NCBI GenBank assembly: GCA_017993335.1
Contig: JAGOMX010000003.1
Span: 790-64,789, forward strand
Origin: Alphaproteobacteria bacterium
Lineage (GTDB): Bacteria; Pseudomonadota; Alphaproteobacteria; JAGOMX01
Direction: 5' to 3'
Length of the DNA: 64,000 nt
In this document: positions 13,586 through 43,605 of the stretch, in pieces
Numbering within the stretch: the first letter of the stretch is position 1
How the letters are laid out: the number at the start of each line of letters is the position of its first letter
Notes under the pieces: generated by a model
Database searches by the model: none
What the model saw: the letters and a program-made list of their open reading frames with translations, nothing else
What the model was told of the DNA's origin: nothing
Position numbers and translations under genes: made by a program

Positions 13586-15811
13586 TTAAGGCTGAGCGAC
13601 GAAAACATGCTCAATGACGCCTAGGTTGTTTTGTAGTAAGGCTATGCCAGTAGGTGTAAGTTGGTCTAGGCGTATCAGCGTTTCATATTCAAAAGAATAG
13701 TTGAGTCCGTTGATAAAAAGTTCTGTTGGACCCACTTCTATTCCGCTACTGCCCGAAACCTCTTGAGCACCAGGTGAGCTTGGGTTGCCTATAATACCAG
13801 CACTTGTCATTATTGCAGAAAAGACCTGGCCATCTGAGGTAGATCCGAAATTAAATGCGATCTCAGTTCCATAACGCATGCTAAAGAATAAATTGGTCTC
13901 CACATCATTTGGCATGTACCCGAATCCGAGCTCGATGTAAGTATTGCTAGCATCCCCACCTAAAAGAATGCTTTGCAAGAATGACACATCCCCTGGATTA
14001 AGCGTGCCGGTTAGGTTTTCAAAAACTGTCTGTACCATTATGTTATTTAAGTCGCTTATCGCCCTCGCATCGCTATAGGTTTTTGCATCTATTACATTTG
14101 TTACTACATCTGGTGCTGTGCCTTCGGATAAAAAGACATCGCTCAAACGACTTAACGGTGGAGGAACATCCGTGACCGTTAAGGTGAATGTATCCATGGC
14201 GGTTGCGCCGGCTCCATCTGTTACGATCACATCAATCGCATAAGGCGTATCGGCAGCAACCGTTGGGGCCGTTCCTGTAATCACGCCGGTAAAAGAATCG
14301 ATGCTCAACCAAGATGGAACCGAAGACCCCAGTGCATAAGTGAGTACATTACCGGTATCTATATCGGATGCAGCGACAGCAAAACTAATAGCTGTGCCCT
14401 CGTCATAGATTTTATCTGTAACGGCCGTAATAATCGGTGCGTCGTTCGTTCCAACCACGCGCAAAGTCAGGTCTCCTGTGCTTGAAGCGCCATATTCGTC
14501 CATTGCCATAATAGGTACTTGGAGTTCAAGTGTTTGTCCTGCAGCTAAGTAATTGTAGGATGGATGGCTCCGGTCAAAGCTAGCCGTGCCGTTGGGATTA
14601 ATGATCAATCCATCCGGTAAAGGACCCATAGGGGTATAGGTTAAGATAGCGCCATCATCTATATCACTAGCCATAAATGACAAATTAAATGCGAAGACAC
14701 CATCGCCTTCGATGAGTGGTGCAATGAGTGCACTTACGACCACTGGTGCATCGTTGGCGCCCATTATTTCAACTCTGATATTCGCGGTGCTCGTGGCTCC
14801 GTGTTCATCGGTTACCATATATTGGGTGGTAACAATCATCGTCTGACCTTGAGCCAAATGATCGTAAGCGGGGTTTGAAGAATCAAAGGTATAGGTGCCA
14901 TCCGCATGAATGACAATACCAGCTGCGGCTACGCCGACAGCGCTATAGGTGAGTACGGCTCCATCATCCGCATCGCTTGTGGCTGGGATTAGGGTTCCGT
15001 TGACAATGCCACCGCCTTCAAAAAACAATGTTGTGAATACGTTAAGAGCTTTTGGCGCATCGTTGGTGCCCACCAAAGTAATCGTTAAGGCTTTTGTGGC
15101 ATCAACCCCACCATTGCCATCGCTGACAGTAAAGGGAATCGTCAACACCAGGGTAGCGCCAGCGGCTAGATGGTTATAAGAGGTGTGTGTGGCATCAAAA
15201 GTATAGCTGCCATTAGGATTCAGAACAAAACCCGCCACAACTGAACTGGTGCTAAAGGTAAGCGTGTCGCCCACGTTGGGATCTACGGCGACCAACTGGC
15301 CAGAAATGGCTGCATCGCCTTCATTAATGTCGAGGGTAGCATTCACCGCGACAGGTGCCTGATTCACAGGACCCTCAATGACGATCTGAATGTTCTCGAT
15401 GTTCACAACGCGTAAATCTATATAGGAAACATAATCTTGAAAGTTAAAGACCGTCTTTTTATTCCAGGTGCTAAAGGCTGTTAGGGCGGCCTGTAAATCT
15501 GCAGCTTGTTGCGCAGTAACCACTAACCGGATTGTGTCGGAGCCTCTTTCCCCATCGTAAAAATCATAAGTGCAGTTATTAAGGTCTATGTTTTCTGTGA
15601 CTTTATGGATGAATATGTCATTGCCATTACCGCCAAGAATAATGTCATCTCCGCTGCCGCCGTCGATAGTATCACTACCATTGCCCGCAAGAATTAAATC
15701 GCTACCGCCACCACCATTAATGAGGTCATCACCATTGCCCGCTAAAATAATATCAGAGCCCGAACCACCCGTTAACGTATTATCACCATTACCACCAACC
15801 AATATTGCCAT
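13586..15811 (-). CDS. Large secreted RTX-type Ca-binding repeat protein with multiple cadherin-like/VCBS-type domains (putative adhesin)
   Basis: 741 aa. The N-terminus carries ~6 GGxGxDxUx nonapeptide repeats (GGSGSDIILAGNGDDLINGGGGSDLILAGNGSD...). These are followed by ≥5 ~100-aa repeats, each ending ...VxGTNDAP. Confidence 0.8.
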   Translation of the reverse strand: MAILVGGNGDNTLTGGSGSDIILAGNGDDLINGGGGSDLILAGNGSDTIDGGSGDDIILGGNGNDIFIHKVTENIDLNNCTYDFYDGERGSDTIRLVVTAQQAADLQAALTAFSTWNKKTVFNFQDYVSYIDLRVVNIENIQIVIEGPVNQAPVAVNATLDINEGDAAISGQLVAVDPNVGDTLTFSTSSVVAGFVLNPNGSYTFDATHTSYNHLAAGATLVLTIPFTVSDGNGGVDATKALTITLVGTNDAPKALNVFTTLFFEGGGIVNGTLIPATSDADDGAVLTYSAVGVAAAGIVIHADGTYTFDSSNPAYDHLAQGQTMIVTTQYMVTDEHGATSTANIRVEIMGANDAPVVVSALIAPLIEGDGVFAFNLSFMASDIDDGAILTYTPMGPLPDGLIINPNGTASFDRSHPSYNYLAAGQTLELQVPIMAMDEYGASSTGDLTLRVVGTNDAPIITAVTDKIYDEGTAISFAVAASDIDTGNVLTYALGSSVPSWLSIDSFTGVITGTAPTVAADTPYAIDVIVTDGAGATAMDTFTLTVTDVPPPLSRLSDVFLSEGTAPDVVTNVIDAKTYSDARAISDLNNIMVQTVFENLTGTLNPGDVSFLQSILLGGDASNTYIELGFGYMPNDVETNLFFSMRYGTEIAFNFGSTSDGQVFSAIMTSAGIIGNPSSPGAQEVSGSSGIEVGPTELFINGLNYSFEYETLIRLDQLTPTGIALLQNNLGVIEHVFVAQP

Positions 15812-19863: not shown

Positions 19864-21393
19864 ATGAACAACCTTTTTATCAACAATATCAAAAAATTTA
19901 GTTCATCTCGGATTTCTGTACAAGGGCAGTCTTATACAGGCGCGCAAATACTACATAAAAAAAACGATGTGGTGAAGTCTCTCTCTGCTTATATTTTCTT
20001 GCCGAATGATCGTGTGGTTCTTGTAGGGGAAGGGGGCTTTGAGTGGCTTTCCTGTTATTTTGCCTTATTAGACTTAAACTTAAAAATTATCCCGATTGAT
20101 GCAGGTTTAGAAACCAAAGTTATTCAAGCAAAAATCAATCAAGCGAGCCCCCGGTATATCCTAAGTCTATCGAAAATGGATTTAGATTTGGGAGGTTTTG
20201 AAGAACATAAACTGGGCGAATCCCTTTATTTTTATCACTGCCAACAGCCGATTGTTCAGCACGAGGATAATGCCTTGATGATGATTGCTTCTTCGGGAAC
20301 GAGTGGCGCAGAAAAATTAATCATGTTGTCGCGGGCAAATATTCAGGCCGTTTTGGATCTTTATGATGAGTTGCTACAAAAAGTCTCCTTTGATTGCGTC
20401 ATGATTTGCCTGCCGATTTCGGCGATATATCCTTTAGCGATTACGTTGGTTTGCTTAAATGCTGGGAAAAAGGTGGTTTTTTGTAATCCTAAAAATGAAA
20501 ACCTCTCTCAAGTGATGATTCGTGAGGAGGTGGAAATTGTTCCCGCCGTTCCTCTAATGCTAGAAATGATTCATAAGGCCATATTTAGTAAAATAGAGAA
20601 TAATCCGTTAAAAAAATGGATTATTCGCCGAATTTTAGATCTCTTTGGATTCATGCGGCGCAGGTGGGCTGTTAATTTAGGGCCTTTTGTCTTAAAGATT
20701 GCGCATAAGCCTTTTGGTGATAAATTGAAATTATTCTTAAGTGGCGGCGCGACATTAAGTGTGAGCACTTTAAAAGATTTTTATAATCTTGGTTTTACCA
20801 TATACGAGGGTTACGGTCTTACGGAAGCGGCTGGATTGGTCACCTATCGCATGGATGATTATTCCGCTTTTGGCACGGTAGGAAAAGTTTCAGATCGTGT
20901 TTTGATGAAAATTTCTGATCAGGATGAAATTCTATTAAAAGGCCCACAGATTTTTTCCGGTTATTTCAATCAACAGAATGAGACCTCATCAGCCTTTGAT
21001 ATGGGGTGGTTTAAAACTGGTGATAAAGGCATGCTTGATGCAAACGGCAATTTGATCGTGAAGGGCCGTATAAAAGATATTATATTTTTATCCGATGAAA
21101 ACGGCTATGCGCCGGAAACTATTGAGGAATACTACAAAGGTATTCCGGGCATAAAAGAATTCATCGTTGTTGGGTGGATTCGAGAAAATACATCTGGTGA
21201 CTATTTAAGTTTAGTCGCTGTTAAAGAAGAGGGTGTGGTCGAATCAAAGGTTTTAGCCGACGTCGAAAGTCATAAAAAACATATTCCTCCACTATTTCAT
21301 ATTCAAGACGTTATTTTTTTGGATGAAATATTGAAAAATAAACTCGGTAAGGTTTGCCGTAACGTTATCAAAGCCAATATAGGGGTAAGGTAA
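19864..21393 (+). CDS. AMP-dependent fatty-acid ligase (acyl-CoA synthetase / FAAL-like), loading enzyme of the NRPS cluster
   Basis: 509 aa with ANL-superfamily cores: SSGTSGAEK (A3), GYGLTEA (A5), FKTGDKG (A7), KGRIKD (A8) and KLGKVCR (A10). Its stop codon is directly followed by the NRPS start. Confidence 0.85.
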   Translation: MNNLFINNIKKFSSSRISVQGQSYTGAQILHKKNDVVKSLSAYIFLPNDRVVLVGEGGFEWLSCYFALLDLNLKIIPIDAGLETKVIQAKINQASPRYILSLSKMDLDLGGFEEHKLGESLYFYHCQQPIVQHEDNALMMIASSGTSGAEKLIMLSRANIQAVLDLYDELLQKVSFDCVMICLPISAIYPLAITLVCLNAGKKVVFCNPKNENLSQVMIREEVEIVPAVPLMLEMIHKAIFSKIENNPLKKWIIRRILDLFGFMRRRWAVNLGPFVLKIAHKPFGDKLKLFLSGGATLSVSTLKDFYNLGFTIYEGYGLTEAAGLVTYRMDDYSAFGTVGKVSDRVLMKISDQDEILLKGPQIFSGYFNQQNETSSAFDMGWFKTGDKGMLDANGNLIVKGRIKDIIFLSDENGYAPETIEEYYKGIPGIKEFIVVGWIRENTSGDYLSLVAVKEEGVVESKVLADVESHKKHIPPLFHIQDVIFLDEILKNKLGKVCRNVIKANIGVR

Positions 21394-24300
21394 ATGTCAC
21401 TGATAAAAAGCGCAAAATTTATCTTTAAAAATCTCGGTAAGTTTTTATCGCAGCAATATGCTTATTCAAGATTTAATTTGCGCCATATGCCGAAAAAAGA
21501 GGATATGTTTAGAGCTTCTAACTGCCAGAAGCGTTTCTATACCCTACAAAGCATGGACGAAAGCAGTGTGGCGTATACGGTGAATGGTGTGGCTACGTAC
21601 ATGGGAAAAATAAATGTAGATGTCTTTCAAAAAGCCATCAATTTAATTACAGAAAAGAATGAAATATTTCGAACGACTTTTGTGCTGACAGAAGAAGGAC
21701 TTATGCAGAAAGTGAACCCTGTTTTTCAGACCACCGTTGGGGTGTATCATCTGGATGACGATTCGGTAGAGGTTGTTGAAAATCTAATGGGAAAAATTAC
21801 GACAGAACCTTTTGATTTGGCGCAATTACCCCTGTTTAGAATCTCACTGATTTTCTTACCTGGTGAACAGGTAAAGCTGCTGACAAATTTTCATCATGCG
21901 ATTTGGGATGCATGGTCTCAATTTAGTTTTTATAAAGAACTCGCGAGGGTCTACAACCAATTAATGCAAGGGGACGACATTAAGCTTGCGGATAAACCTA
22001 TTGACTATAGGCACTATGCTTATGTGGAAGGACAAACCATAGAATCCGGCGATAAAAAGACAATAGCCTATTATTACCAGTACTTGAAAAAATTTGAACC
22101 GATGGATTTTAATTTTATTAAAAGCAAAAACAGTTCAAAAAAGGCACACAATTTCAATGCCTATTTTAGCCATGGAACCGTCAATAATATCAGAAAAAGG
22201 TGTGAGGAATTAAATTGTTCCATGCATGACTTTATGTTGGCATGCTTTTTAATGATGATTTTTAAATACACGCGCAACAATCATGTAGCCTCAATGATTC
22301 CAAGGTTTTCTAGGTTTAATAAAAAGATTCTCAGCGTATATGGCCCTATGTTAAATGCTTTACCGATTATCGTGGATAGCCATGATGATGTGGTGTTTTC
22401 TGATTTTGTGCAATCGGTCAAAACCCAGATACGCACGTTATTTAAATATGATAACATGCCTTACGATTATATTTTAGAGCAAGTACAAAACGAAAAGGAT
22501 GCGCCGTCTATTGGGCCGATTCCTTTATTGTTTAATTATCTGTCTCAGCATTGGTTCAGCGTGGATGATTTTTCTGAATTGGTCTACCTGAAGAATGAAT
22601 TGGTGTCGAAAGAAGTCGACTTTTTGATGGCTTTTTACATTGTCGGGTTTGATCGGAGCAATCAATTGGCTATGAGTGTGACGTATCAAAAAGATAAAAT
22701 CGACTTTAATACAATGAAGATTGTTGTGGATCACTATCGCGCGCTTATACAAAAAGTTTCTAAGGATCCAAGCAAGGCTTTCAAGGATTATGCCCTGGAA
22801 TGTAACGATTTGCCGAACATTCCGAATTATTTATCTTGGCCGAAGTGTCATGCGAGATTCTCTCCGGTTATGAAAAAAATATATGAGAATGCCCTTTCGC
22901 AACCCAATTCAAAAGCGTTGATTACAGGAAATGAGCAGACCTCCTATGGCGAGCTGGCGGATTTAAGCGCATATTATTTTGATCAACTGGAGAGTATAGA
23001 AAAAAATGATGTGGTGGCTATCTCTGGTGTCCGCGATAAACGTTTTTATGCGGCGATGTTAGCGGCTTTATCCGCGGGAGCCACTATTTATATTTTTGAT
23101 CCCAACACGGATAAAAAACTATTGCAGTCTACACTGACACAGATAAATCCAAGATATTGTTTATTGTCCGATACGGCAGATGGTAAATATATCTGGCAAC
23201 TGAAAGAAGTGTTTCATGGGGACGTTACATTTATTTCCTTGGGCGAAAATATAGACCGTGTCCGTATAGAAAATCATCCTATTTTGAACCATGTTGCGCA
23301 CATAAATGAATCGGATCGGGCGTATGTGTGCTCTACGTCTGGTTCAACGGGTGTGCCAAAGATTGTTCAGGTGGCTCACGGTGGTTTATGTCATTTTATT
23401 GAATGGCAGGTCAATCAATTTAAAATTACATCGGACGATACATGCGCACAGCTGACAAATCCTAATTTTGATGTGTGCTACCGGGAAATTTTCACGCCCT
23501 TGTATGCGGGGGGTGTATTAGTTGTTCCGGATTCAGATGATTATCTGACACAAGGTAATTTTTTCCAGTGGCTTATGGATAAAAAAATAACTTTTTTCCA
23601 TACCGTTCCCAGCATTTTAAATTTGCTTTCGGCAGAAATCTCCAATTACGAAGAGTTAGCCTTAACAGAATTGCGTTGGGTTTTTAGTGCTGGAGAGCCC
23701 CTGCATAGTGAATTAATTAAAACAATCCGTAGTCGTGTTTATTATTTTCCGACGCTCGTCAATCTTTATGGTCCTACGGAAACCTGTCTGGCTAAGGCTT
23801 ACTATGTGGTGCCGATGGAATTGAAAGAGGGGGTTCAGCCCGTCGGAAATCCATTGCCCAAGACAGAGATATATGTATTAAATTCCACCGGAACAATTTG
23901 CGGAATGGGAGAAGCAGGCGAGATTCATATCCGTCCTCCCTTTACCGTGTTGGGTTATTTAGATGGTAATCCTGAAAAATTTAAAATCAATCCACATACC
24001 CAAAATGAAACGGATAAAATCTATGCGACGGGTGACTTGGGGTATTGGGATGATAAGGGTCTATTGCACGTCATTGGTCGTCTGGATGATCAGGTGAAAA
24101 TTAATGGTATACGGGTGGAATTAGACGCTATTAAGCAAGCGATCATGAAACACCCAGATGTGCGGATGGCAGCGGTTATTTATGATGCCAATAAACTAAC
24201 CGCATTTTATAGCTTAAAAGAAATGCCTCAAGAAACTCTTCAGAGCAGTATTCAGGCACATACCCTTGATCTATTGCCTCCCCATATGCATCCGAATTCT

Positions 24301-25836
24301 TTTGTCGAGCTGGATGAAATTCCTTTGCTGCCGTCTGGAAAAATAAACAAACGAGCCTTAAAGGCTATGGTTGTTGCCCCGACAGAAGAAGCTCCCATAA
24401 CCTTGCCTGTCACGCAGACGGAAAAGAAGCTCTATGAAATATGGGCTGCCGTGCTGAAAAATGATAAGGTTTCAACAACAGCCCCCCATAAAAACGTTGG
24501 TTTGAATTCTTTACTCGTCATTCAGGTGATTTTAAGTATTAAAAAACACATGAAACTTACGATTAAACCGATCGAATTTGTTCAATATAAAAACTTGAAA
24601 GAAATAGCTCAACTGATCGATAGTCGCGCAGGTGTCGTGCAGGAGGATGAAAGTTTAGTCTCCTTTAAGACGGTTAAAGAATTAAAAGCTCTTGTGCCTG
24701 TTGTGCAAGATCTAGAAAACTTAAAACCGGCGAATCCTGTCCATGCACATATCTTTTTAACAGGAATGCCAGGATTTTTAGGATGTTACTTATTAAGGGA
24801 TCTGTTGCAAACCTACCCGAAGGCAAAGATCTCGATCCTTATTCGTGCCAAAGATATAGATGAAGCAAAATTGCGTATGGAAGAGGCTTTCCAGCGCATG
24901 TCTTATAAGCCCAGTCCTGACGATTGGCAACGTATCGACATCTGCATCGGAGATTTACAGCAAGCTAATTTTGGCTTTACTCAAGAAAATTACCAGAGAC
25001 TGGCTGAAAGTGTGGATAGCATTTATCATGCGGGGGCCTTTGTGAACTTTTTGTATGATTATGAGGCTTTAGAAAAGGCAAATGTCTTTGGTACTCATGA
25101 AGTGATTCGTCTGGCAAGTGCGCATCAAGTTAAGCCTATCAGTTATGTCTCCACAGCGGGTATCTTTCCAGCTCGAAAAGAATTTGTCGACAAGTACATC
25201 CAGGAAGATTTTGATATAGATTTTGGCGACGAGCAACGACTGTATGGTGGGTATGCTCAAACCAAGTGGGTTGCCGAAAAATTGATGCATGGGGCTGCAG
25301 AAAAGGGCATACCTATTTCTGTTTATCGATTGGGCCGTATTGGTGGAGATTCCCAAACAGGTTTTTGGCCGCAGAATGATTTTATTTATTGCTTCTTAAA
25401 AACAGTGCATGATCTATCTTCTATTCCGGATCTACCCTTAAAGATAGATCTTTTGCCTGTAGATCTAGCCTCTAAAATTATAGTGGAGATTGAAAAGGCC
25501 TCGCCTTATCAAAACCGTAGCTATAACTTAATTAATCCGAATAGAATCTCCATCACAGAGATGCAAGGCATATTAAGCAACGGCAATTCGAAACCCAGTA
25601 TTGATCCTTACGTACAATGGCGTCAAAAGATTATTGATAGTTTATCTAGTGATAAACCTGCAGCGCTGGGTGCTTTTGTGGGGCTGTTACCGGAAGAGCA
25701 TACAGCATTGCCGCGATTGCAGTATGATCGTTTGTTTGCGGTAGATAACGTATTAGAGGCCTTACAAGGTACGAATGTGGTCTTTACGGCTATCGACAAG
25801 ACGCTTATCCAAAAGTATTTAAATCCTGATGAATAG
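21394..25836 (+). CDS. Single-module nonribosomal peptide synthetase, domain order C-A-T(PCP)-R (terminal thioester reductase)
   Basis: 1480 aa. The C domain has HHAIWDAWS (HHxxxDxxS). The A domain has YVCSTSGSTGVPK, NLYGPTE, YATGDLGYWD and GRLDDQVKINGIRVEL. The PCP has the LGG(x)S-like motif, matched by ...VGLNSLLVIQ. The C-terminal SDR-type reductase has FLTGMPGFLG (TGxxGxxG) and YAQTK (YxxxK). Confidence 0.9.
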   Translation: MSLIKSAKFIFKNLGKFLSQQYAYSRFNLRHMPKKEDMFRASNCQKRFYTLQSMDESSVAYTVNGVATYMGKINVDVFQKAINLITEKNEIFRTTFVLTEEGLMQKVNPVFQTTVGVYHLDDDSVEVVENLMGKITTEPFDLAQLPLFRISLIFLPGEQVKLLTNFHHAIWDAWSQFSFYKELARVYNQLMQGDDIKLADKPIDYRHYAYVEGQTIESGDKKTIAYYYQYLKKFEPMDFNFIKSKNSSKKAHNFNAYFSHGTVNNIRKRCEELNCSMHDFMLACFLMMIFKYTRNNHVASMIPRFSRFNKKILSVYGPMLNALPIIVDSHDDVVFSDFVQSVKTQIRTLFKYDNMPYDYILEQVQNEKDAPSIGPIPLLFNYLSQHWFSVDDFSELVYLKNELVSKEVDFLMAFYIVGFDRSNQLAMSVTYQKDKIDFNTMKIVVDHYRALIQKVSKDPSKAFKDYALECNDLPNIPNYLSWPKCHARFSPVMKKIYENALSQPNSKALITGNEQTSYGELADLSAYYFDQLESIEKNDVVAISGVRDKRFYAAMLAALSAGATIYIFDPNTDKKLLQSTLTQINPRYCLLSDTADGKYIWQLKEVFHGDVTFISLGENIDRVRIENHPILNHVAHINESDRAYVCSTSGSTGVPKIVQVAHGGLCHFIEWQVNQFKITSDDTCAQLTNPNFDVCYREIFTPLYAGGVLVVPDSDDYLTQGNFFQWLMDKKITFFHTVPSILNLLSAEISNYEELALTELRWVFSAGEPLHSELIKTIRSRVYYFPTLVNLYGPTETCLAKAYYVVPMELKEGVQPVGNPLPKTEIYVLNSTGTICGMGEAGEIHIRPPFTVLGYLDGNPEKFKINPHTQNETDKIYATGDLGYWDDKGLLHVIGRLDDQVKINGIRVELDAIKQAIMKHPDVRMAAVIYDANKLTAFYSLKEMPQETLQSSIQAHTLDLLPPHMHPNSFVELDEIPLLPSGKINKRALKAMVVAPTEEAPITLPVTQTEKKLYEIWAAVLKNDKVSTTAPHKNVGLNSLLVIQVILSIKKHMKLTIKPIEFVQYKNLKEIAQLIDSRAGVVQEDESLVSFKTVKELKALVPVVQDLENLKPANPVHAHIFLTGMPGFLGCYLLRDLLQTYPKAKISILIRAKDIDEAKLRMEEAFQRMSYKPSPDDWQRIDICIGDLQQANFGFTQENYQRLAESVDSIYHAGAFVNFLYDYEALEKANVFGTHEVIRLASAHQVKPISYVSTAGIFPARKEFVDKYIQEDFDIDFGDEQRLYGGYAQTKWVAEKLMHGAAEKGIPISVYRLGRIGGDSQTGFWPQNDFIYCFLKTVHDLSSIPDLPLKIDLLPVDLASKIIVEIEKASPYQNRSYNLINPNRISITEMQGILSNGNSKPSIDPYVQWRQKIIDSLSSDKPAALGAFVGLLPEEHTALPRLQYDRLFAVDNVLEALQGTNVVFTAIDKTLIQKYLNPDE

Positions 25837-31225: not shown

Positions 31226-32557
31226 TTAATTTTTTGGCACATACATCACGACTTCAATCGGGCGGAGTTCGTTGTCATCGGATATATTGAAGATGTGCAT
31301 TTGCTCGCCCGGGATAATAAAGTTTTCATCCATGGTTGCCTCGAAGAGAATGACGCCTTTAGCCGGGGCTAATTGTAGCTTATCATTTCCAGAGACCATT
31401 TGACGTTCTAGACCTAAAACCCGTGTATCCATAGCGCTCGTTACAAAAGAATCTGTAACAATAACGCAATTCTTAACCCAGTTGGAGAGATCCTGCATGG
31501 ACATACTGTTGGAGGCTTTGGCACCAAGAATGTAGGTTTGTCCCAGCCATTCTTTGCGCAGAAGGAGAGAAAAATCACGACCTTTTTTAACGAAAGGTAC
31601 AACGGCATAGCCTTCTTGGATGCGGTCGATCATTAAGAAGATAAAGTTTACCACCTGATCATAAGTCGCCTCAAGCCTGTCATGATCATAGGCATCAAAA
31701 ATAGGTGGGATCTGTGAGGGGTGTAAGGCCGCTACATGCCCGGCGAGGCCACATAAACTGATGTATAACTGAAAAGGGTGTGCGACTTGAGAGTTAAGGT
31801 TGGCCTCGAACGGGATTAACCCTGTGGATAGGGCGCGCACCGCATCTTCAGCGTCCCTGGTCATATAGCCTTCGGTGCGGCTGAGCATTCGTTCAGAAAG
31901 ATAGGCAACTTTCTCGCGTATGCGTGAGCATATAAATATACATTTTTTACCTAACGCAGAGTTCTTGGTAACCTTTAAAACGGGTGGAATATAATCTTTA
32001 CGTATGTAGGCATTGGATTCCCTTTGTAGGCTCATCAGCGGAAAGCAGGCAAACGTACTCGGTGGTTTTGTTCCCACAAACAACGAGGCATTTGGAACCA
32101 GTCGGGGGATACGAATTTGTCCGGAGCCTGTGTTTTCATCCACCACATCTCGGCCCTCGACAGAGCTAAAACGGGACTCATTATTATTGGCATTTGCACT
32201 GCCGTGGATGTAACGGGGTATGCCTAAATAGATAGTTTGCGGGCCCTTTTCAAAATCACTTTCATAAGGGGTGAGGTCTAAAGAAATGTGCTCGCCTTCA
32301 CTGGCATAGGATGAAATCACCGTTGAATCCGGCATAATGGCTTCAAGACCTGTAATCTGCAGTATGCCGTTTACCAATAAAGAGTCTTCAATTTCCAGAA
32401 AGCGTAAACCCCAGTGATAAGGTGATATTTCCGATATGTGAAAATCTAACAACTCCTGTTGACGGACATCGTTCTGTTGAAAGTGTTGGGGCAGCAATAG
32501 CATGCCTTCATGCCACTGGATTGCGTCTGTTTTCAGTTTAATCACGTTCAACCTCAC
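31226..32557 (-). CDS. tssK: Type VI secretion baseplate protein TssK-like (ImpJ/VasE family)
   Basis: 443 aa. The N-terminal ...IQWHEGMLLLPQHFQQND... is the hallmark TssK opening (compare WxEGMFLxPQHFQQ), and the length matches TssK (~445 aa). Confidence 0.7.
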   Translation of the reverse strand: MRLNVIKLKTDAIQWHEGMLLLPQHFQQNDVRQQELLDFHISEISPYHWGLRFLEIEDSLLVNGILQITGLEAIMPDSTVISSYASEGEHISLDLTPYESDFEKGPQTIYLGIPRYIHGSANANNNESRFSSVEGRDVVDENTGSGQIRIPRLVPNASLFVGTKPPSTFACFPLMSLQRESNAYIRKDYIPPVLKVTKNSALGKKCIFICSRIREKVAYLSERMLSRTEGYMTRDAEDAVRALSTGLIPFEANLNSQVAHPFQLYISLCGLAGHVAALHPSQIPPIFDAYDHDRLEATYDQVVNFIFLMIDRIQEGYAVVPFVKKGRDFSLLLRKEWLGQTYILGAKASNSMSMQDLSNWVKNCVIVTDSFVTSAMDTRVLGLERQMVSGNDKLQLAPAKGVILFEATMDENFIIPGEQMHIFNISDDNELRPIEVVMYVPKN

Positions 32558-35272: not shown

Positions 35273-35456
35273 CAGGGCCTACGCATGAAAATTGCACAAA
35301 AACCTGTCACATCTGCGCAAGGAGTGCGGCGCAGCCGCTACAGTATTGATATATTGCAGAGGCTTCGCCTCACATGTTGCGCTGGACACCTGCCTTCGCA
35401 GGTGTGACAGGTGTGGACGTCACTTCCTCTCTTAAATTTTTCATGCGTAGGCCCTG
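35273..35456. mobile_element. MITE-like non-autonomous element, family A (copy A1), with perfect 19-bp TIRs and a 10-bp target-site duplication
   Basis: TIRs are cagggcctacgcatgaaaa ... ttttcatgcgtaggccctg. The element is flanked by the direct repeat ccgagatatc (35263-35272 and 35457-35466). Its internal sequence is shared with the copies at 62156 and 60902. Confidence 0.7.
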
Positions 35457-35530
35457 CCGAGATATCGTTTTGACTCAGGGTGAGCTTGTGATAGTATATA
35501 TAGTATCGATAATTATGATATGCAAAAAAA

Positions 35531-36724
35531 ATGAATGATACGCGTAAATATATATTATTCGGAACGCTAGGCGTTATAGGCTTGCTAACGATTCTTGGGC
35601 TGTGGTGGCGATATGCCGGATCCGGGTCGGGTTCTCCTATGGGGTCAGCAATTGCTGTTGAGATCGAAGAGGTGCGCATGGGCTCTATCGTGCAGCGCAT
35701 TAAGGTTGTGGGCACCTTGCGGGCCGATAACGAGGTTACCATTCATCCGGAAATTGATGGTCGTATCAAAAAAATAAACTTCCAAGAAGGTCAATTGGTG
35801 AATGCTGGCGATCCTTTGGTGGAGATCGAGGATGCTTCTTATCAGGCCAAATCTAAAGAAGCACAAGCCCTGCTGAACTTTGCCAAATTGGAGCTGGATC
35901 GCTATACGCGGTTAACAGATCAAAGCGCGGGTTCCTTAAAAAATAAGGAAAGAGCACAATCGGAGTTATTGCAGGCAGAGGCTCGTTATGCCCAGGCAGC
36001 GTTGCAGCTAGAGCATACAATTATAAAGGCGCCTTTTACCGGTTATGTGGGGCTGAAGCAGTTCAGCGTGGGTGCGCTTATTGATCCACGGATAGAGTTG
36101 CTCACGATCGTAGACGTGGATCCTATAAAGGTTGACTATCGTGTGCCGGCGAAATACTTGCGTTCTTTAAGCAAGGGACAAGAAGTGAAAGTTACGGTAG
36201 ACAGCTTTCCAGATGAAATTTTTCGGGCGCGGATTGATGCCTTGGATCCTAAGGTTGACTCTGCGGCGAACAGTGTTCTCGTGAGGGCCTTAATTCCTAA
36301 TAAAGATGGCCGCTTGAAGCCAGGGTTGTTTGCCCGGGTGGATATGGTTGTGGGGTCTAAGGATGACGCTCTTTTGCTGCCGGAATCCTCTGTGTTGACA
36401 TCCGGGGATGAATCCTCTGTTTATGTGGTTGAGGAGGCAGACACGCCTAATGGTAAAGTATCCTATGCACGAAAAGTTCAAGTGGTTGTCGGCATAAGTG
36501 AATCTGGTATTGTGGAGATCCAAAGAGGTTTAAAAGACAAGGAAAAAGTTATTTCTGTCGGACAAACAAAAGTACAAAACGGATATCCAGTGCGGATTGT
36601 TAATGACATTAATGATGAGAGCGAATTTGACGAAAGCTTAAATAAAATGTCAACGGCAGATAAGGCAGAAAAACCTAAAGAAAATGCTGGTTCATCGTCT
36701 GAAGAAGGCGATAAAAATCAATAA
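35531..36724 (+). CDS. RND efflux periplasmic adaptor (membrane fusion protein, HlyD/AcrA family)
   Basis: 397 aa with an N-terminal TM/signal, a coiled-coil hairpin and a lipoyl/beta-barrel region (PGLFARVDMVVG). Located upstream of the RND pump gene. Confidence 0.85.
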   Translation: MNDTRKYILFGTLGVIGLLTILGLWWRYAGSGSGSPMGSAIAVEIEEVRMGSIVQRIKVVGTLRADNEVTIHPEIDGRIKKINFQEGQLVNAGDPLVEIEDASYQAKSKEAQALLNFAKLELDRYTRLTDQSAGSLKNKERAQSELLQAEARYAQAALQLEHTIIKAPFTGYVGLKQFSVGALIDPRIELLTIVDVDPIKVDYRVPAKYLRSLSKGQEVKVTVDSFPDEIFRARIDALDPKVDSAANSVLVRALIPNKDGRLKPGLFARVDMVVGSKDDALLLPESSVLTSGDESSVYVVEEADTPNGKVSYARKVQVVVGISESGIVEIQRGLKDKEKVISVGQTKVQNGYPVRIVNDINDESEFDESLNKMSTADKAEKPKENAGSSSEEGDKNQ

Positions 36725-36742
36725 AAATAAGAGTGTCATTTC

Positions 36743-39700
36743 ATGAAACTTACTGAAATTTGTATTTCTAGGCCGGTCTTATCGACAGTGTTGTCTTTGT
36801 TGCTGGTTGTCGTTGGGTATGTCAGCTATTCGCGGTTGCAGGTTCGTCAATATCCTAAAATTGACTATCCTGTGATGAGTGTGCGTACGTCTTTTGAAGG
36901 CGCCAGTCCGGACATTATTGAATCACAAATTACAAAGCCATTAGAAAATGCTCTGCTGGGTATTAATGGGATTGATACCATTACCTCTGAAAGCGGCAAT
37001 GGCGAAAGTAAGATTTCTATTGTTTTTAAAGTTAATCGTGACATTGAGGATGCGGCAAACGATGTGCGGGATAAAGTAAACCGTGCAAGGGCCAGTTTTC
37101 CCAGTGATGTAGCAAACTCGGAAATACGTAAGTCCGATGCGGATGCCGTACCGATGATGAACTTGGTTCTTTATGCGGATAACGATAAGGTGAACGTCAA
37201 TCAAATGAATGACTATGCCAAAAATGTCTTGGAGAACCAGATCCAAGTCGTCCCTGGTGTGGCGGCGGTGGACAGATGGGGGGGTGGCGAATTTAAAATG
37301 TATATTCGCCTAGATCCTTTGAAATTGGCTAACTTAAAGATATCTCCGGAAGATGTGGCGCGAGCCTTAAAGGATCAAACCTTTGAAAGACCTGCGGGTT
37401 ATTTAACGACGGACGATAAACAAATTACGGTGACGACAAAGGCGGCTTTGCGGACGGAGGAAGAGTTTAGCAATGTGGTCATTGAAGAGCGAGATGGCTA
37501 CTTAATTCGTATCAGTGATGTGGCTTCAGAAGTTAAATTTGACGCGGTAGAAAACCAGTTTTATGTGCGTTACAATGGCAAGGATGCGGTTACGATGGCT
37601 GTAACCCGCCAATCGACAGCCAATGACCTGGAAATATCTCAGGCTATCTATAAATTATTACCCAAGTTACAACGGGAAATGCCATCCGGGATGCTGTTGG
37701 ATGTGGCGAGTGATAACTCTATCTTTATTGAAAGATCTGTAGATGAGGTTTATGAAACCATCGTTATTGCCTTTATCCTTGTATTGCTAGTGATCCTGGT
37801 GTTTTTGCGTTCGGTGCGTGGTGCGGTGATTGTCTTGCTGCCTATACCGCTATCGTTGATTGGGGCTTGCGCCATTATATATGTGTTCGGATTTAGTATT
37901 AACATTCTGACTCTTTTAGCGATGGTTATGGCCATTGGCCTGGTGGTGGATGACGCCATTGTCGTTTTGGAAAACATCTATCGATACATAGAAGACGGCA
38001 TGGAGCCTATGGCGGCGGCCTATAAAGGATCCAAAGAAATTGCTTCAGCCGTTGTTGCCATGACGATTACGTTGGCAGCGGTGTATTTGCCCATTGCTAT
38101 GTCGCCGGGTGAAACGGGAAAAACCTTTACAGAATTTGCCGTAACGTTAGCTGGGGCTGTATTGATATCGGGTTTCGTGGCCTTGACTCTGTCGCCGATG
38201 ATGTGTTCGCGGTTTTTGAAAAAGCATGCGGAAATAAAAGAATTAAAATTCATCGAGAATTTTTTAAATCGAGTGGACGAGCGGTACGTGAGTTCCTTGA
38301 AAAAAACATCTAGAATTACCATCCTTTTGTGTGGTTTTGGTATTGCGGCGTTTGGTGCTGTCGTGGGCATTAACATGAAACAAGATGCCTCCACCCCCGA
38401 AGACCAAGGTACGATTAAGGCTACGGCGTTTCCGCCTAAAGGTGCCAGTTTAGCTTATATCAGCAAGTATATGACACAAGCTGAAAAAATAATCATGGAT
38501 GATGAAGAATGGCCAGGCCGCAAGGCATTTGTAAAGGATCTCTTGCCAATCTTGGAGTCTATCAACAAGTATGTGACACAAGCTGAAAAAATAATTAAGA
38601 AAGAGGGCGAATGGAAGGGTAGCGAGCCATTTGCAACGAATTTTCTGTCGATCTTCGTTGGTGTCAATAAGCATGTGGCCGTTGCCGAAACAATAATAGA
38701 GGACATGAAAAAAGGAAATGGCGGACAGCAGTCTGTCGCCGATCTCTCGTCGAATTTAGTTTTTATCAATAAGTATATGACATTAGCTGAAAAGATGATC
38801 AAGGAAGAGGAAGCAAAAAATGGGGCCAAGCCATCTCTAGCCGATCTCTTATCGGCCTTTGTTTCGATCAACAAGTATGTAGCGCAGGCTGGAAAAATAA
38901 TTACAGACGAGCAGAAAGAGCATGATGGCAAACGATCTGTAACCAAGCTATTATCCATAATTCAAACTCGTGGTGATACTTCGTTTAGAGGTGTTTTGTT
39001 GCCATGGGAGGAAAGATCTCGTTCCTCTATGAAAATTGCGGAAGCTTTGCAACCCAGATTAAAGGATATTACAGGGTTATCGTTAAATTTAAGGGGATTT
39101 GGTCGTTCCTTTGGCGGTGGATCAAAAGATAAACCCGTGAGTCTCGTCATTCAGTCTAATAAGTCATATGAAGATTTAATATCCGTTTTTGCGCAGTTTG
39201 CCTCGAACTTATCCAAGATGCCGGGTATAGCTGAGCGTAGCGTGGAGCAGACGAACTTATCCGAAGAACAAGAATATGCGATTAGAATTGATCGAGAAAA
39301 AGCTGCCTCTTTAAATGTGGATGTTATTCGCGTCGGTGAGACATTAGATACTCTGATCAGTGGGCGTCCTGTGACCTTCTTTAAATCCGATAGTATTCGT
39401 TATCCTGTAACCGTAGAGCTGGATCAGCAATATAGAAAAACACGGGAAGATATATCGGCCTTATACATCCGTAGTGTGCGCAACAACAAGGCGACGATGG
39501 TTCCTTTGACGGAGATCGTTTCCGTAGAGCGCCAGTTAGTGCCGCCATTAATTGCGCACGTGGGCGGTTTGCGTGCTTTAAGTATCTGGGCGGATGTGGA
39601 GTCGGGCTATGGTTTGGGTGACGTGTTGAACCGAGCGCAGGAAATGGCGTTTAACACATTACCAGAAGGTTCCCGTATGGAGTTTGTGGGCGGAAGTAAA

Positions 39701-40294
39701 AGCTTTTTAGAAGAAAGCGCAAACCTGATCTGGATTTTTGTCTTCGCGATCGTATTCATCTATTTGGTCTTGTCCGCACAGTATGAAAGCTTTATTGATC
39801 CGTTAATTATTATGATCAGCGTGCCTTTGTCATTGGTGGGTGGTATTCTGTTCTTGCTGGTGTTTGGTGGATCTTTCCAGTCCTCCGTATTGTTTATCGA
39901 AACAACAGGTACATTAACGATATTTGCAAAAATTGGTTTAGTGACCTTGATAGGTTTGATCACCAAGCATGGTATTCTGATTGTGGAATTTGCAAACGCG
40001 AAAGTTGCAGAAGGTAAAGACAGAATTTCCGCCGTTGTAGAAGCCGCCGGCGTTCGATTGCGCCCCATATTGATGACAACCTTTGCTATGGTATTAGGGG
40101 CTGTCCCCCTCGTTCTGGCCGATGGCGCCGGCAGCGAATCCCGCCGGCAAATTGGATCGGTTATCGTGGGTGGCATGTCTTTGGGAACGATCTTTACCCT
40201 ATACGTCGTCCCAGCCGTATATGTATATGTGACGACGGAAAACATAAAATACGTGCTGACGCTACAATTCTTGCGCAAAATGAAAGTGGCTTAA
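36743..40294 (+). CDS. RND-family efflux pump (AcrB/HAE1-like) carrying a ~190-aa tandem-repeat insertion in periplasmic loop 2
   Basis: 1183 aa, i.e. ~140 aa longer than canonical AcrB. It has 12 TM segments in two 6-TM bundles and the PEDQG motif after TM7. Five ~39-aa repeats are then inserted (L..x..INKYVxQAEKII...G....L) before the conserved sequence resumes. Confidence 0.9.
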   Translation: MKLTEICISRPVLSTVLSLLLVVVGYVSYSRLQVRQYPKIDYPVMSVRTSFEGASPDIIESQITKPLENALLGINGIDTITSESGNGESKISIVFKVNRDIEDAANDVRDKVNRARASFPSDVANSEIRKSDADAVPMMNLVLYADNDKVNVNQMNDYAKNVLENQIQVVPGVAAVDRWGGGEFKMYIRLDPLKLANLKISPEDVARALKDQTFERPAGYLTTDDKQITVTTKAALRTEEEFSNVVIEERDGYLIRISDVASEVKFDAVENQFYVRYNGKDAVTMAVTRQSTANDLEISQAIYKLLPKLQREMPSGMLLDVASDNSIFIERSVDEVYETIVIAFILVLLVILVFLRSVRGAVIVLLPIPLSLIGACAIIYVFGFSINILTLLAMVMAIGLVVDDAIVVLENIYRYIEDGMEPMAAAYKGSKEIASAVVAMTITLAAVYLPIAMSPGETGKTFTEFAVTLAGAVLISGFVALTLSPMMCSRFLKKHAEIKELKFIENFLNRVDERYVSSLKKTSRITILLCGFGIAAFGAVVGINMKQDASTPEDQGTIKATAFPPKGASLAYISKYMTQAEKIIMDDEEWPGRKAFVKDLLPILESINKYVTQAEKIIKKEGEWKGSEPFATNFLSIFVGVNKHVAVAETIIEDMKKGNGGQQSVADLSSNLVFINKYMTLAEKMIKEEEAKNGAKPSLADLLSAFVSINKYVAQAGKIITDEQKEHDGKRSVTKLLSIIQTRGDTSFRGVLLPWEERSRSSMKIAEALQPRLKDITGLSLNLRGFGRSFGGGSKDKPVSLVIQSNKSYEDLISVFAQFASNLSKMPGIAERSVEQTNLSEEQEYAIRIDREKAASLNVDVIRVGETLDTLISGRPVTFFKSDSIRYPVTVELDQQYRKTREDISALYIRSVRNNKATMVPLTEIVSVERQLVPPLIAHVGGLRALSIWADVESGYGLGDVLNRAQEMAFNTLPEGSRMEFVGGSKSFLEESANLIWIFVFAIVFIYLVLSAQYESFIDPLIIMISVPLSLVGGILFLLVFGGSFQSSVLFIETTGTLTIFAKIGLVTLIGLITKHGILIVEFANAKVAEGKDRISAVVEAAGVRLRPILMTTFAMVLGAVPLVLADGAGSESRRQIGSVIVGGMSLGTIFTLYVVPAVYVYVTTENIKYVLTLQFLRKMKVA
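38440..38960 (+). repeat. Intragenic tandem repeat (~117-nt unit x ~5) within the RND pump gene
   Basis: Repeated nucleotide blocks ...atcaacaagtatgtgacacaagctgaaaaaataat... encode the INKY..AEKII protein repeat. Confidence 0.7.
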
Positions 40295-40320
40295 GAAGGT
40301 CATTTTATAACATATTGTTG

Positions 40321-40528
40321 TAGACTAAGTATGCAGCCCCGTCATCCTGATCGAAGCTCAGCGTTAGCTGAGTGAGAGAAGGATCCAGGCACACAAGTGC
40401 CACTTTAGTGGCTCTATATAGTCTATAAAGAGTCGCTTTCGCGACGCTCTTGCGCCTGGATTCTTCGCTAACTCCGCTGGCGCGGAGCCGCACTCAGAAT
40501 GACGGGAGGGGGTAATGATACTTATTTA
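40321..40528. mobile_element. MITE-like element, family B (copy B1)
   Basis: TIRs are ccccgtcatcctga ... tcagaatgacggg. Its two arms are reverse complements of the arms of the copy at 51731-51932 (opposite orientation), and it has flanking atgatacttattta-type sequence. Confidence 0.6.
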
Positions 40529-40562: not shown

Positions 40563-41678
40563 CTACCCGCCAATCTCCACCAGCTCATAGGCGGTGCTTC
40601 GGCCGCCGGCTGTGCCTTTTTTTAGGATATTTTTTTCGATGAGGTCTTGGATATCGCGGGAGGCAGAGTCTTGTGAGCATTTGCACATTTTTGCCCATTT
40701 GGTTGAGGTAAGGCTGCCGTATAGTTTTTCGTCTAGAAGGTGATTCAACATAAACCTTTGGCGCTCGTTCAGGTGCATCTTATTTAAGGTATTCCAATAG
40801 TGTGTCTTATGAAAAACCCGATTGAGGCTGTCATTTGCGGTTTGGACGGCGCGTAATAAACAGTTGAGGTACCACTCTAACCAATAGGTTATATCCATAT
40901 GGGTATTTTTTTGTGTATGTTCTAGATGTTGGTAATAGTCTTCCCGTTCCTTTTGAATTTGTGCCGATAAGCTATAAAATCGTTTAGACGTATTTTCTGA
41001 ACGTGCCAACAGTAAGTCGCATAAAGCCCTGCCTATGCGGCCATTGCCATCATCGAAGGGGTGAATGGTTTCAAACCATATATGAGCAATCCCTGCCTTT
41101 AGAACTAAATCTATGTTTTGATCTTCATTGTACCAATCCATAAAACGTTGCATTTCTTGTGGAACAATTTCTGGTGACGGAGCCTGAAAATGGATGCGTT
41201 CTTTGCCCATGCGACCAGAAACGATTTGCATAACGCCTTTGCGCCAATCGGCTATGGTGATTTTGTTGAAACCACTGCGGCCTCCTGGAAATAAAAGGCT
41301 ATGCCAGGCGAATAGCCGATCTGGGGTTAAGGGGTGTTGGTAGTTCGTGGTTGCGTCCAGGACCATCTCGACAACACCATCTACGTCCCGGGGTGAGGAT
41401 ATAAGACCCGCTGTGTCTAACCCTAAATGCCTGGCAACGGAAGATCGCACTTGCTCATAGTTGAGGTGTTCACCTTCAATTTCGCTGGATTTTATAACAT
41501 CATTTGTATAGGTCAACAACATGGTTTCGCGTCGTAAGTCAAAGCCAGTCGCCTCCATGCGTCCGCCTAGCATGCCTTGTTGATAACGAAACTGTGCGAG
41601 CAAATTACCAATACGGGCGCTATCCCAAATAAACTGAGGCCATTGGGGGAGTTGATGTATGTAGGTCACGTGATCCAT
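40563..41678 (-). CDS. Fic-family protein (class II, with N-terminal inhibitory helix)
   Basis: 371 aa. The core Fic motif is HPFDDGNGRIGRAL. An upstream SSEIEG sequence fits the [ST]xxxE[GN] inhibitory motif. The C-terminus has a winged-helix-like domain. Confidence 0.85.
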   Translation of the reverse strand: MDHVTYIHQLPQWPQFIWDSARIGNLLAQFRYQQGMLGGRMEATGFDLRRETMLLTYTNDVIKSSEIEGEHLNYEQVRSSVARHLGLDTAGLISSPRDVDGVVEMVLDATTNYQHPLTPDRLFAWHSLLFPGGRSGFNKITIADWRKGVMQIVSGRMGKERIHFQAPSPEIVPQEMQRFMDWYNEDQNIDLVLKAGIAHIWFETIHPFDDGNGRIGRALCDLLLARSENTSKRFYSLSAQIQKEREDYYQHLEHTQKNTHMDITYWLEWYLNCLLRAVQTANDSLNRVFHKTHYWNTLNKMHLNERQRFMLNHLLDEKLYGSLTSTKWAKMCKCSQDSASRDIQDLIEKNILKKGTAGGRSTAYELVEIGG

Positions 41679-41868: not shown

Positions 41869-41939
41869 GGCTAAATTTTTTTACGTGATGTCCGAATAGG
41901 AAAAACTTGTCATTCCAGTCTGAAGGCGGTAGTGTTATC

Positions 41940-42731
41940 ATGACTTTAAAAAAGGAAAATATGATGTTAAATAAAGTATTTTGCACGCTTTTTCTCGTCC
42001 CCTTGTTGTTGGTTGGATGTGGTGAAGAAAAAAAAGAAAACGCCGGTTCTAAACCTAAACTCTCGATGGTGACATCTGCGGATTACCCGCCTTTTGAATT
42101 TTTTATAACGGAAGGCTCCAGTGCTAAAATAGCTGGCTTAGACATGGATATTGCCCATCGTGTTGCCGAATACTTGGGCTATGAAATAGAAACGAAGGAT
42201 GTGGATTTTACAACTGTGATTCCTTTGGTGCAATCCGGGCAGGCAGATTTTGCGATGGCGGGCATAACGCCGACACAGGACCGTGAGAAAGATCTTTCCT
42301 TCAGCCAGCCTTATTACTTTATGAACAATGTGATGATCCATCGTATCGACAACGATTTTATTCGGCGAGGCGATTACAAAGGCGTACGCATTATTGTGCA
42401 ATTGGGATCGTTGCATGAGCAATATGCCAAGATATGGCAGCAACAAAACCCGGGCTCGACGGTTTTAACGTTAAATAAGTTAGGTGATGCGGTGCAAGAA
42501 CTTCTTGCGGGCAGGGCAGATGGCATTATTTGTGATGAAACGCCATCTAAGTCCTATATAAGCAAATATAGTCAGGAACTGACCATGCAAAATTTAGAAG
42601 GGGAAAGCTTTGGGCTTGCCATTGCTTTTAAGAAGGGCTCTCCCTTGGTGATCGATTTTAATCGAGCTTTGGATCATCTAAATGAGATTGGAGCGTTGGA
42701 CGAAATTATCAATAAATGGCTAGCGCAGTAG
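41940..42731 (+). CDS. Amino-acid ABC-transporter-type periplasmic substrate-binding lipoprotein (SBP family 3)
   Basis: Signal peptide plus lipobox (LLLVGCGEE). The SBP_bac_3 pattern is present (SADYPPFEF...GLDMDIAHRVAEYLG...GITPTQDRE). I trimmed the start to the first ATG (MTLKK); the ORF-track start is a TTG. Confidence 0.75.
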   Translation: MTLKKENMMLNKVFCTLFLVPLLLVGCGEEKKENAGSKPKLSMVTSADYPPFEFFITEGSSAKIAGLDMDIAHRVAEYLGYEIETKDVDFTTVIPLVQSGQADFAMAGITPTQDREKDLSFSQPYYFMNNVMIHRIDNDFIRRGDYKGVRIIVQLGSLHEQYAKIWQQQNPGSTVLTLNKLGDAVQELLAGRADGIICDETPSKSYISKYSQELTMQNLEGESFGLAIAFKKGSPLVIDFNRALDHLNEIGALDEIINKWLAQ

Positions 42732-42771
42732 GTTGTTTGTCTATTAAACGTTAAGATAAAAGGTATTAAGA

Positions 42772-43605
42772 ATGAATCATGTGGTTTTAATAGATTGTCC
42801 AGATGGTAAGGGGTTGATTTCGAAGATAACGAACGTGCTCTTTCAGAATGATTTAAATATCGTTGCCAATGGCGAATATGTAGATCGGCAACATAACTTA
42901 TTTTTTATGCGCACGGAGGTAGAAGGCCAGGTGCGCCAGGATAAGCTGCAATCGGAGCTAGAGGCCGTTCTGCCTGCGGGGGCTCATGTAAGGATTTCCT
43001 CACAAACTCCGAAGAAAATTGTTCTGATCGCAACCAAGGAAGCTCATTGTTTAGGGGATTTATTGGTGCGTTGTTGGCATGGCGGTCTGAATGCTCATGT
43101 GCAAGCGGTCGTCAGTAACCATGATGTCTTAAAAGATTTAGTCAATCGTTTTGATATTCCCTATCATTTCATCCCTCATGAGGGCATGGAGCGTCGTGCG
43201 CATGAAATAGAGCTGGAGCATATTTTGGATGCTTATCAACCCGATTATATTGTTCTGGCCAAATATATGCGTATCCTGTCGGAAGAGTTTACGGCTAAGT
43301 ATGAGCATAGAATGATAAACATTCATCATTCCTTCTTGCCAGCTTTTATCGGGGCTAAACCTTATCAGCAAGCCTTTGTGCGCGGGGTGAAAATTATTGG
43401 GGCTACGGCGCATTTTGTTAATTCTGATTTAGACGAGGGGCCTATTATTACCCAGCAAGTTATACCCGTCGATCATGCTTTCAGCGCAGAGGATATGGCT
43501 AAAGCGGGTGAAGACGTGGAAAAAATTACGCTATCGAATGCCTTGCGACTCGTCCTGGAGGATAGAGTGTTCGTCAGCGGTAACCGCACGGTGGTATTTG
43601 ATTAG
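42772..43605 (+). CDS. purU: Formyltetrahydrofolate deformylase
   Basis: 277 aa with an N-terminal ACT domain and a formyltransferase core (HHSFLPAF, GAKPYQQA, GATAHFV). Confidence 0.85.
   Translation: MNHVVLIDCPDGKGLISKITNVLFQNDLNIVANGEYVDRQHNLFFMRTEVEGQVRQDKLQSELEAVLPAGAHVRISSQTPKKIVLIATKEAHCLGDLLVRCWHGGLNAHVQAVVSNHDVLKDLVNRFDIPYHFIPHEGMERRAHEIELEHILDAYQPDYIVLAKYMRILSEEFTAKYEHRMINIHHSFLPAFIGAKPYQQAFVRGVKIIGATAHFVNSDLDEGPIITQQVIPVDHAFSAEDMAKAGEDVEKITLSNALRLVLEDRVFVSGNRTVVFD

Follow-up and report, generated by a model that had tools for sequence, protein, structure and literature searches.

We describe an AcrB-type resistance-nodulation-division (RND) efflux pump in which a piece of the pump's own porter domain has been multiplied into five tandem copies. 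The pump is encoded by an intact open reading frame (ORF) at 36743..40294 (+), 1183 aa, within a 64,000-nucleotide stretch of DNA from an Alphaproteobacteria bacterium (contig JAGOMX010000003.1; the whole stretch is called the window here). Comparison with homologues identifies the repeat unit as the stretch of the porter subdomain PC1 that runs from its first helix (alpha1) through a loop to its second strand (beta2). We lean, with some reservation, towards a model in which this native alpha1-loop-beta2 segment was amplified fivefold and extruded as an external helical bundle, which would be kept by purifying selection and exert a mostly steric effect.

The array occupies 38459-38968 (+) and comprises five tandem units with a spacing of exactly 34 aa or 102 nt and 0 indels, the units, anchored on the motif [IV][SN]K[YH][MV], starting at aa 573, 607, 641, 675 and 709. 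DNA self-identity reaches 0.59-0.64 at lags of 102, 204, 306 and 408 nt, where other in-frame lags give 0.27 +/- 0.03 (z = 10.6-12.6), and BLOSUM autocorrelation of the protein gives z = 8.1-8.5 at lags of 34, 68, 102 and 136 aa; the period of 102 is also returned by Tandem Repeats Finder and by an independent repeat finder. The initial annotation of this DNA was right in the number of units, as borne out by the motif-anchored starts and by a self-identity far beyond chance, and wrong in the period, given as about 39 aa or 117 nt, at which lags the autocorrelation carries no signal (z = 0.3 and 1.0). The span it assigned, 38400-38960, takes in the repeat except for its last few nucleotides, the true array ending slightly beyond it. 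Copy 1 lies at 38459..38560 (aa 573-606), copy 2 at 38561..38662 (aa 607-640; 72% nucleotide identity to copy 1), copy 3, showing the greatest divergence among the five, at 38663..38764 (aa 641-674), copy 4 at 38765..38866 (aa 675-708) and copy 5 at 38867..38968 (aa 709-742), all on the + strand, with a copy-to-copy identity of 29-50% of residues and 55-72% of nucleotides. An antisense ORF of 167 aa (38455-38958 (-)) spans the array exactly and is repetitive, too; we take it for a probable side effect of the codon composition of the repeats, not a gene.

The origin of the unit emerges from an alignment (MAFFT) of the pump with 83 homologues being 46-78% identical to it. The exact protein is also recorded from an NCBI metagenome-assembled genome labelled 'Alphaproteobacteria bacterium', and named homologues belong to Paracaedimonas, Caedibacter, Caedimonas, Bealeia and further Holosporales-like symbionts. 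One unit only is found in 83 out of 83 aligned homologues, and aa 590-732 (38510..38938 (+), 143 aa) form the sole query-specific insertion of at least 3 residues in the whole protein, consisting of four extra units (136 aa) and a helix-strand loop 7 residues longer than that of the relatives; without it the pump measures 1040 aa, a normal RND length. Rather than an uninterrupted module of normal length, PC1 of this pump has a 143-residue insertion, most likely between alpha1 and beta2, and the 143 query-specific alignment columns show that the region is no divergent PC1 of ordinary size. The placement of the insertion early in periplasmic loop 2 after transmembrane (TM) helix 7 holds, with PEDQG at aa 552 and the first unit at aa 573, and the normal RND sequence is seen to resume behind the array in the homologue alignment. 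Upstream, the native PC1 strand beta1 (38399..38431 (+), aa 553-563, assigned by DSSP on the AlphaFold2 (AF2) model) occupies columns filled in all homologues. The homologue P0002, 78% identical and located on contig L002, has the single-copy sequence GANLEF-INKYMQRAEKLILAEPEVEKLLSMIQT-RGDTSF; since the gene order glycosyltransferase, adaptor, RND, solute-binding protein is common to the window and this contig, P0002 represents a true syntenic orthologue. The notion of a module grafted onto the pump had to be given up, the units reading as copies of the pump's own PC1 alpha1-loop-beta2, which is single in every relative. The GC content of the array equals that of the remainder of the pump gene. 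An origin from foreign DNA or a mobile element is excluded by this gene-like GC content and by the homology of the unit to a native segment.

The full-length AF2 model (84-sequence alignment) has a predicted local distance difference test score (pLDDT) of 87.5 and a predicted template modelling score (pTM) of 0.79. DSSP assigns a strand at 553-563, a short helix at 570-585, enclosing the helix half of copy 1, and strands at 733-741 and 746-752, these elements flanking an insert predicted as four long helices (591-620, 628-656, 662-693 and 700-727); the helical character ascribed to the region at the outset is borne out by the AF2 predictions. The strand half of copy 5 (KLLSIIQT) is modelled as beta2 (E733-741), while the former strand segments of copies 1-4 are predicted to fuse with the helix of the next copy into helices of ~30 residues. 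Modelled alone, aa 586-732 adopt an up-down four-helix bundle of generic fold with pLDDT 89 and pTM 0.83, its four antiparallel helices being compactly arranged. Scored against the nine closest homologues, the helix halves of copies 1-5 reach 44.1, 41.7, 23.9, 37.1 and 34.8, and the strand half of copy 5 reaches 28.7 compared to at most 10.8 for the other copies. By these scores copy 1 has the most ancestral-looking helix and copy 5, by a wide margin, the most ancestral-looking strand, and in the model these two most likely occupy the native alpha1 and beta2 positions. Generic up-down bundles such as single-chain ROP, the plant pectin methylesterase/invertase inhibitors and the talin rod share at most 13% identity with the insert and have no sequence relationship to it; thousands of bundles match equally well, and therefore no function can be transferred to the insert.

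The remainder of the protein is an ordinary RND permease. Its identification as an AcrB-like pump of 1183 aa is confirmed by the intact ORF, by Pfam ACR_tran (PF00873; 831.5 bits compared to a cut-off of 28, E = 1.1e-249), matched in two stretches with the insert between them, and by matches to 83 distinct solved RND chains in the PDB, the best being BpeF (7wlv, E = 2e-134), with MdtB (9lyq) also among the best. A Foldseek search with the AF2 model gives target-normalised TM-scores of 0.88-0.93 to CmeB, AcrD, OqxB, MtrD, BpeF and AcrB, and a twelve-TM fold with two large periplasmic loops, contributing the porter and docking domains, is predicted. The solved RND chains listed by the sequence and structure searches are ~1024-1069 residues long. 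D403, D404, K1075, R1105 and T1112 are invariant columns in the alignment of 84 sequences and form the equivalents of the proton relay, which we take to correspond to AcrB D407, D408, K940, R971 and T978 by way of the AcrB sequence motifs VVDDAIV, TKHGILIVEF and RLRPILMT. Compared to the orthologue P0002, dN (nonsynonymous divergence) is 0.175 with dS (synonymous divergence) being saturated. The pump gene looks functional because the ORF is intact, the proton-relay columns are invariant and dN is low against a saturated dS. The best-matching NCBIfam models, NF033617 RND_permease_2 (985.3 compared to a cut-off of 1250) and TIGR00915 HAE1 (645.1 compared to 940.35), stay below their cut-offs, and therefore no subfamily or substrate class is assigned. 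With HAE-1-type permeases (MdtB/MdtC, BpeF, OqxB, AcrB, MexB) the pump has in common full-length homology, the predicted fold, the proton-relay residues and an adaptor gene directly upstream; it differs from them by the 143 additional residues within PC1. A loop of ~10-17 extra residues between two C-terminal TM helices (aa ~1042-1058, window ~39866-39916), the sole segment with pLDDT < 50, is common to the closest clade (P0002-P0017) and absent in the more distant homologues inspected, and represents a feature of this clade, not one peculiar to the pump.

The periplasmic adaptor (membrane fusion protein) gene, at 35531..36724 (+), ends 18 nt upstream of the pump gene and encodes 397 aa with Pfam HlyD_D23/HlyD_3 matches and an NCBIfam RND_mfp (TIGR01730) score of 249.6 bits compared to a cut-off of 94.9; as in tripartite RND systems, a cognate adaptor is encoded beside the permease. 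Its tail of ~40 residues (aa ~358-397, window 36600-36724) is acidic, lysine-rich and of low complexity; a similar tail is present in the L002 orthologue, and it is therefore unrelated to the insert of the pump. No outer-membrane factor of the TolC/OprM type was found adjacent or among the 14 Pfam-screened ORFs, which cover part of the 64-kb window. Genes for outer-membrane factors are often unlinked to pump genes.

To place the insert on the pump, we used a full-length phmmer alignment pairing query residues 7-579 with AcrB residues 5-593 (offset 14). Applying this offset to the AcrB sequence, the insertion presumably follows approximately AcrB residue 603, in the loop that joins helix C-alpha1 to strand C-beta2, the strand in turn leading into the switch loop. 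Residues 741-755 (window 38960-39010), running from beta2 to a conserved Trp, would correspond to the AcrB switch loop, which in E. coli AcrB appears to have ~6 residues more. A phmmer search of the PDB with PC1/PC2 alone, the insert being removed, gave no match at E <= 0.01, this porter region being too diverged. AcrB-type porter subdomains carry two helices on their outside, and their inner beta-sheet lines the pockets; PC1 has been presented as a continuous fold, and the porter domain is ~40 A tall (PMC8277102). Cryo-EM and in situ data on AcrAB-TolC show the adaptor touching PC1 and PC2, the membrane-proximal domain of protomer I docking on PC1 (PMC8934357). We infer that the insert lies on the outer, helical side of PC1, the docking site of this adaptor domain in AcrAB-TolC. 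Of the effects proposed in the initial annotation, on substrate capture and on the interaction with the adaptor or outer-membrane channel, the one on the adaptor alone thereby gains indirect support. The initial annotation had put it in the substrate-access region; fold topology instead points to the external alpha-helical face, outside the cleft. Helices of 28-32 residues would give a bundle of roughly 42-48 A in length, estimated at 1.5 A per residue; what it would plausibly alter is the docking of the adaptor or the rim at the cleft entrance, not the binding pockets themselves.

Insertions into porter modules are known at beta2-beta3, at beta1-alpha1 (small hairpins) and, in SecDF, at alpha2-beta4 (PMC8277102). 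The AF2 register and the conservation of the individual copies place the present insertion at alpha1-beta2, a site not listed there. Porter modules with spliced-in subdomains, i.e. the AcrB PN2/PC2 docking domains, the helical subdomains of HpnN, NPC1, PTCH1 and DISP1, the SecDF P1 head and the FtsX/NPC1 beta-hairpins, have in common with our pump a ferredoxin-like module tolerating an extra, sometimes all-helical, subdomain in one loop (PMC8277102). The pump differs from them in the site, alpha1-beta2 by the AF2 register, and in the nature of the insert, a lineage-specific tandem copy of its own alpha1-beta2 instead of a foreign or ancient domain.

Divergence among the copies suggests that the amplification, lineage-specific and later than the split from the P0002 lineage, is nevertheless old. 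It is younger than that split and not recent, because dS between copies is unsaturated (0.48-1.7) and all relatives are single-copy; as the orthologue dS is saturated, it can be dated only as younger than that split. Phase variation by present-day slippage is excluded, the copies being too diverged. The ratio of nonsynonymous to synonymous polymorphism (pN/pS) is below 1 in all ten copy pairs (0.44-0.76), with a one-sided Fisher p < 0.05 in six of the ten, the pairs being non-independent. Within the extra copies, the helix halves show 0.30-0.34 and the former strand halves 0.65, and the loops, computed across all five copies, 0.78. These ratios indicate purifying selection on the extra helices, far weaker than on the remainder of the pump. 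Such constraint fits a folded module and fits a positive function and selection against misfolding equally.

No relative and no solved pump structure carrying the insert was found, making the pump a singleton. The longest of the 120 best homologues has at most 1117 aa. Searching 1.84 billion representative proteins with the 182-aa repeat region by phmmer returned 0 matches at E <= 0.001, so that a multi-copy module is absent from all other representatives; a lone unit of 27-34 aa falls short of a scoring length in this search, and any relative >50% identical to a representative with a single copy would stay hidden behind it. Scans of GTDB genomes and JGI metagenomes with aa 540-800 returned pattern matches and no relative with the insert confirmed by tblastn, and the insert alone found nothing significant in Pfam or PDB sequence searches. 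Literature searches yielded no report of an RND pump with tandem repeats or a four-helix-bundle insertion, and no paper on the run accession SRR11088487.

In the model we lean towards, tandem amplification would have turned a 102-nt segment of an otherwise ordinary HAE-1-like pump gene into five in-frame copies once the lineage had parted from its closest sampled relative. The native fold would retain the copy 1 helix and the copy 5 strand, and everything between them would be extruded, the strand segments of copies 1-4 becoming N-terminal extensions of the following helix and the resulting four helices of ~30 residues packing into an antiparallel four-helix bundle; the number of helices being even, the chain would come back to its starting point. 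The bundle would sit on the external helical face of PC1, resulting in three bundles per trimer of a pump that would still act as a proton-driven tripartite exporter with the adjacent adaptor. Its effect would be steric, reshaping the docking surface for the adaptor membrane-proximal domain beside the entrance of the PC1/PC2 cleft, and it would take no part in substrate binding or proton coupling. A further-reaching proposal, which we regard as unlikely, is that a new periplasmic domain was born in an RND pump from its own alpha1-beta2, with strands switched to helix at a site unused by described porter modules, and that it serves as an adaptive docking or regulatory surface for the adaptor or another partner, changing complex assembly or substrate access.

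Several observations weigh against the model of an extruded and selectively maintained bundle. It is known from one sequence in one sample, with no second strain or relative carrying the insert, and therefore no comparative evidence bears on function. The adaptor, 68% identical to its L002 orthologue, shows no matching insertion or change. The confidence of the insert in the full-length model is moderate (means of 59-80 over blocks of 10 residues), the helix of copy 5 also retains all core-facing residues, and the choice of the copy 1 helix by AF2 may be biased by the MAFFT registration of the homologues. The constraint on the helices may also reflect nothing but selection against misfolding, the extra copies having no positive role.

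On this last point rests the idea of a neutral passenger, doubtful in our view and still with an appreciable chance of being right: replication slippage or unequal recombination would have produced the copies, and drift in an endosymbiont-like lineage of small population size would have fixed them, the copies being tolerated because they lie on an exposed face, the remaining constraint being avoidance of misfolding. It would account for the insert being a singleton among 1.84 billion representatives and in the GTDB and JGI scans, for a pN/pS in the repeats (0.44-0.76) far above that suggested for the remainder of the gene by dN 0.175 with saturated dS, for loops close to neutral (0.78) and for an adaptor without compensating change; homologues from Holosporales/Paracaedibacter-like symbionts and gene loss in the neighbourhood, where an ABC permease and ATPase are absent compared to L002, suit such a lineage. 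However, a neutral insert of 429 nt should erode, or collapse through recombination as long as its copies are alike, whereas the five copies persist in register with 0 indels at a dS of ~0.5-1.7; constraint on the helix halves of the extra copies is evident (0.30-0.34), and the bundle that the sequence encodes is predicted with confidence and as well packed.

The same amplification could also have resulted in another topology, in which helix and strand of copy 5 are both native and copies 1-4 are inserted between beta1 and alpha1, contrary to the model preferred here; we consider this improbable. Copy 5 does retain the helix positions I, Y, A, I and I conserved across copies and homologues, its helix is contiguous with the ancestral-like strand, forming the unit as in the ancestor, and the resulting register would place the insertion at beta1-alpha1, a documented insertion point (PMC8277102); in addition, the way MAFFT placed the homologues may have set the AF2 register. 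Against this, the helix of copy 1 scores higher than that of copy 5 with the closest homologues (44.1 compared to 34.8), AF2 sets H570-585 apart as a short native helix and makes H700-727 a single uninterrupted long helix of the bundle, and aa 586-732, including helix 5, make up a complete four-helix bundle at pLDDT 89. An assembly artefact in the form of an expanded repeat, or a decaying pseudogene, to which the metagenome-assembled origin from one sample only might point, is highly improbable: copies being 55-72% identical and differing at 28-45% of nucleotide positions cannot be collapsed or expanded by an assembler, a Logan contig independently assembled from SRR11088487 agrees base for base with window 35428-40366 across all 4939 nt, and the ORF is intact with conserved catalytic residues and pN/pS < 1.

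The surroundings of the pump gene differ from those on contig L002 (5852-8834). A Fic/DUF4172 gene lies between the RND and the solute-binding-protein genes (window 40563-41678 (-), 41907-43605 (+)), none being found there in L002, and nothing in the 40-nt gap that separates the binding-protein and formyltransferase genes of the window corresponds to the ABC permease and ATPase genes of L002; in the window the solute-binding protein appears orphaned. Elsewhere in the window, a 297-aa protein (52070-52963 (+)) with a Pfam LRR_6 match contains approximately six leucine-rich repeats of 66 nt or 22 aa (LSDCTQITNAGLAHLS), 87% identical, at 52490-52899, an array much younger than that of the pump. 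Leucine-rich repeats of this eukaryote-like type are common in protist symbionts. Further genes encode a stand-alone adenylating enzyme and, behind it, a 1480-aa protein resembling nonribosomal peptide synthetases, with condensation, adenylation, carrier and reductase domains (19864-25836 (+)), a type VI secretion VasE/TssK-like protein (31226-32557 (-)) and an RTX/cadherin-like repeat protein (13586-15811 (-)).

Few membrane transporters have been studied as well as RND pumps, and the porter subdomains of these pumps are seen as modules with few conserved insertion points. The pump described here appears to have gained a whole helical subdomain at a different point, made from sequence of the module itself. 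Should the prediction be right, this would be a clean natural case of domain birth by internal tandem duplication, in which the same ancestral peptide (KLLSMIQT-like) is predicted as a beta-strand in one copy and as part of an alpha-helix in the others. Because the face of PC1 on which the insert is placed contacts the adaptor membrane-proximal domain in AcrAB-TolC, the insert could act as a natural probe of the change tolerated at the pump-adaptor interface. The pump is a structural variant of a well-known transporter family, being of interest for protein evolution and for the pump-adaptor interface.

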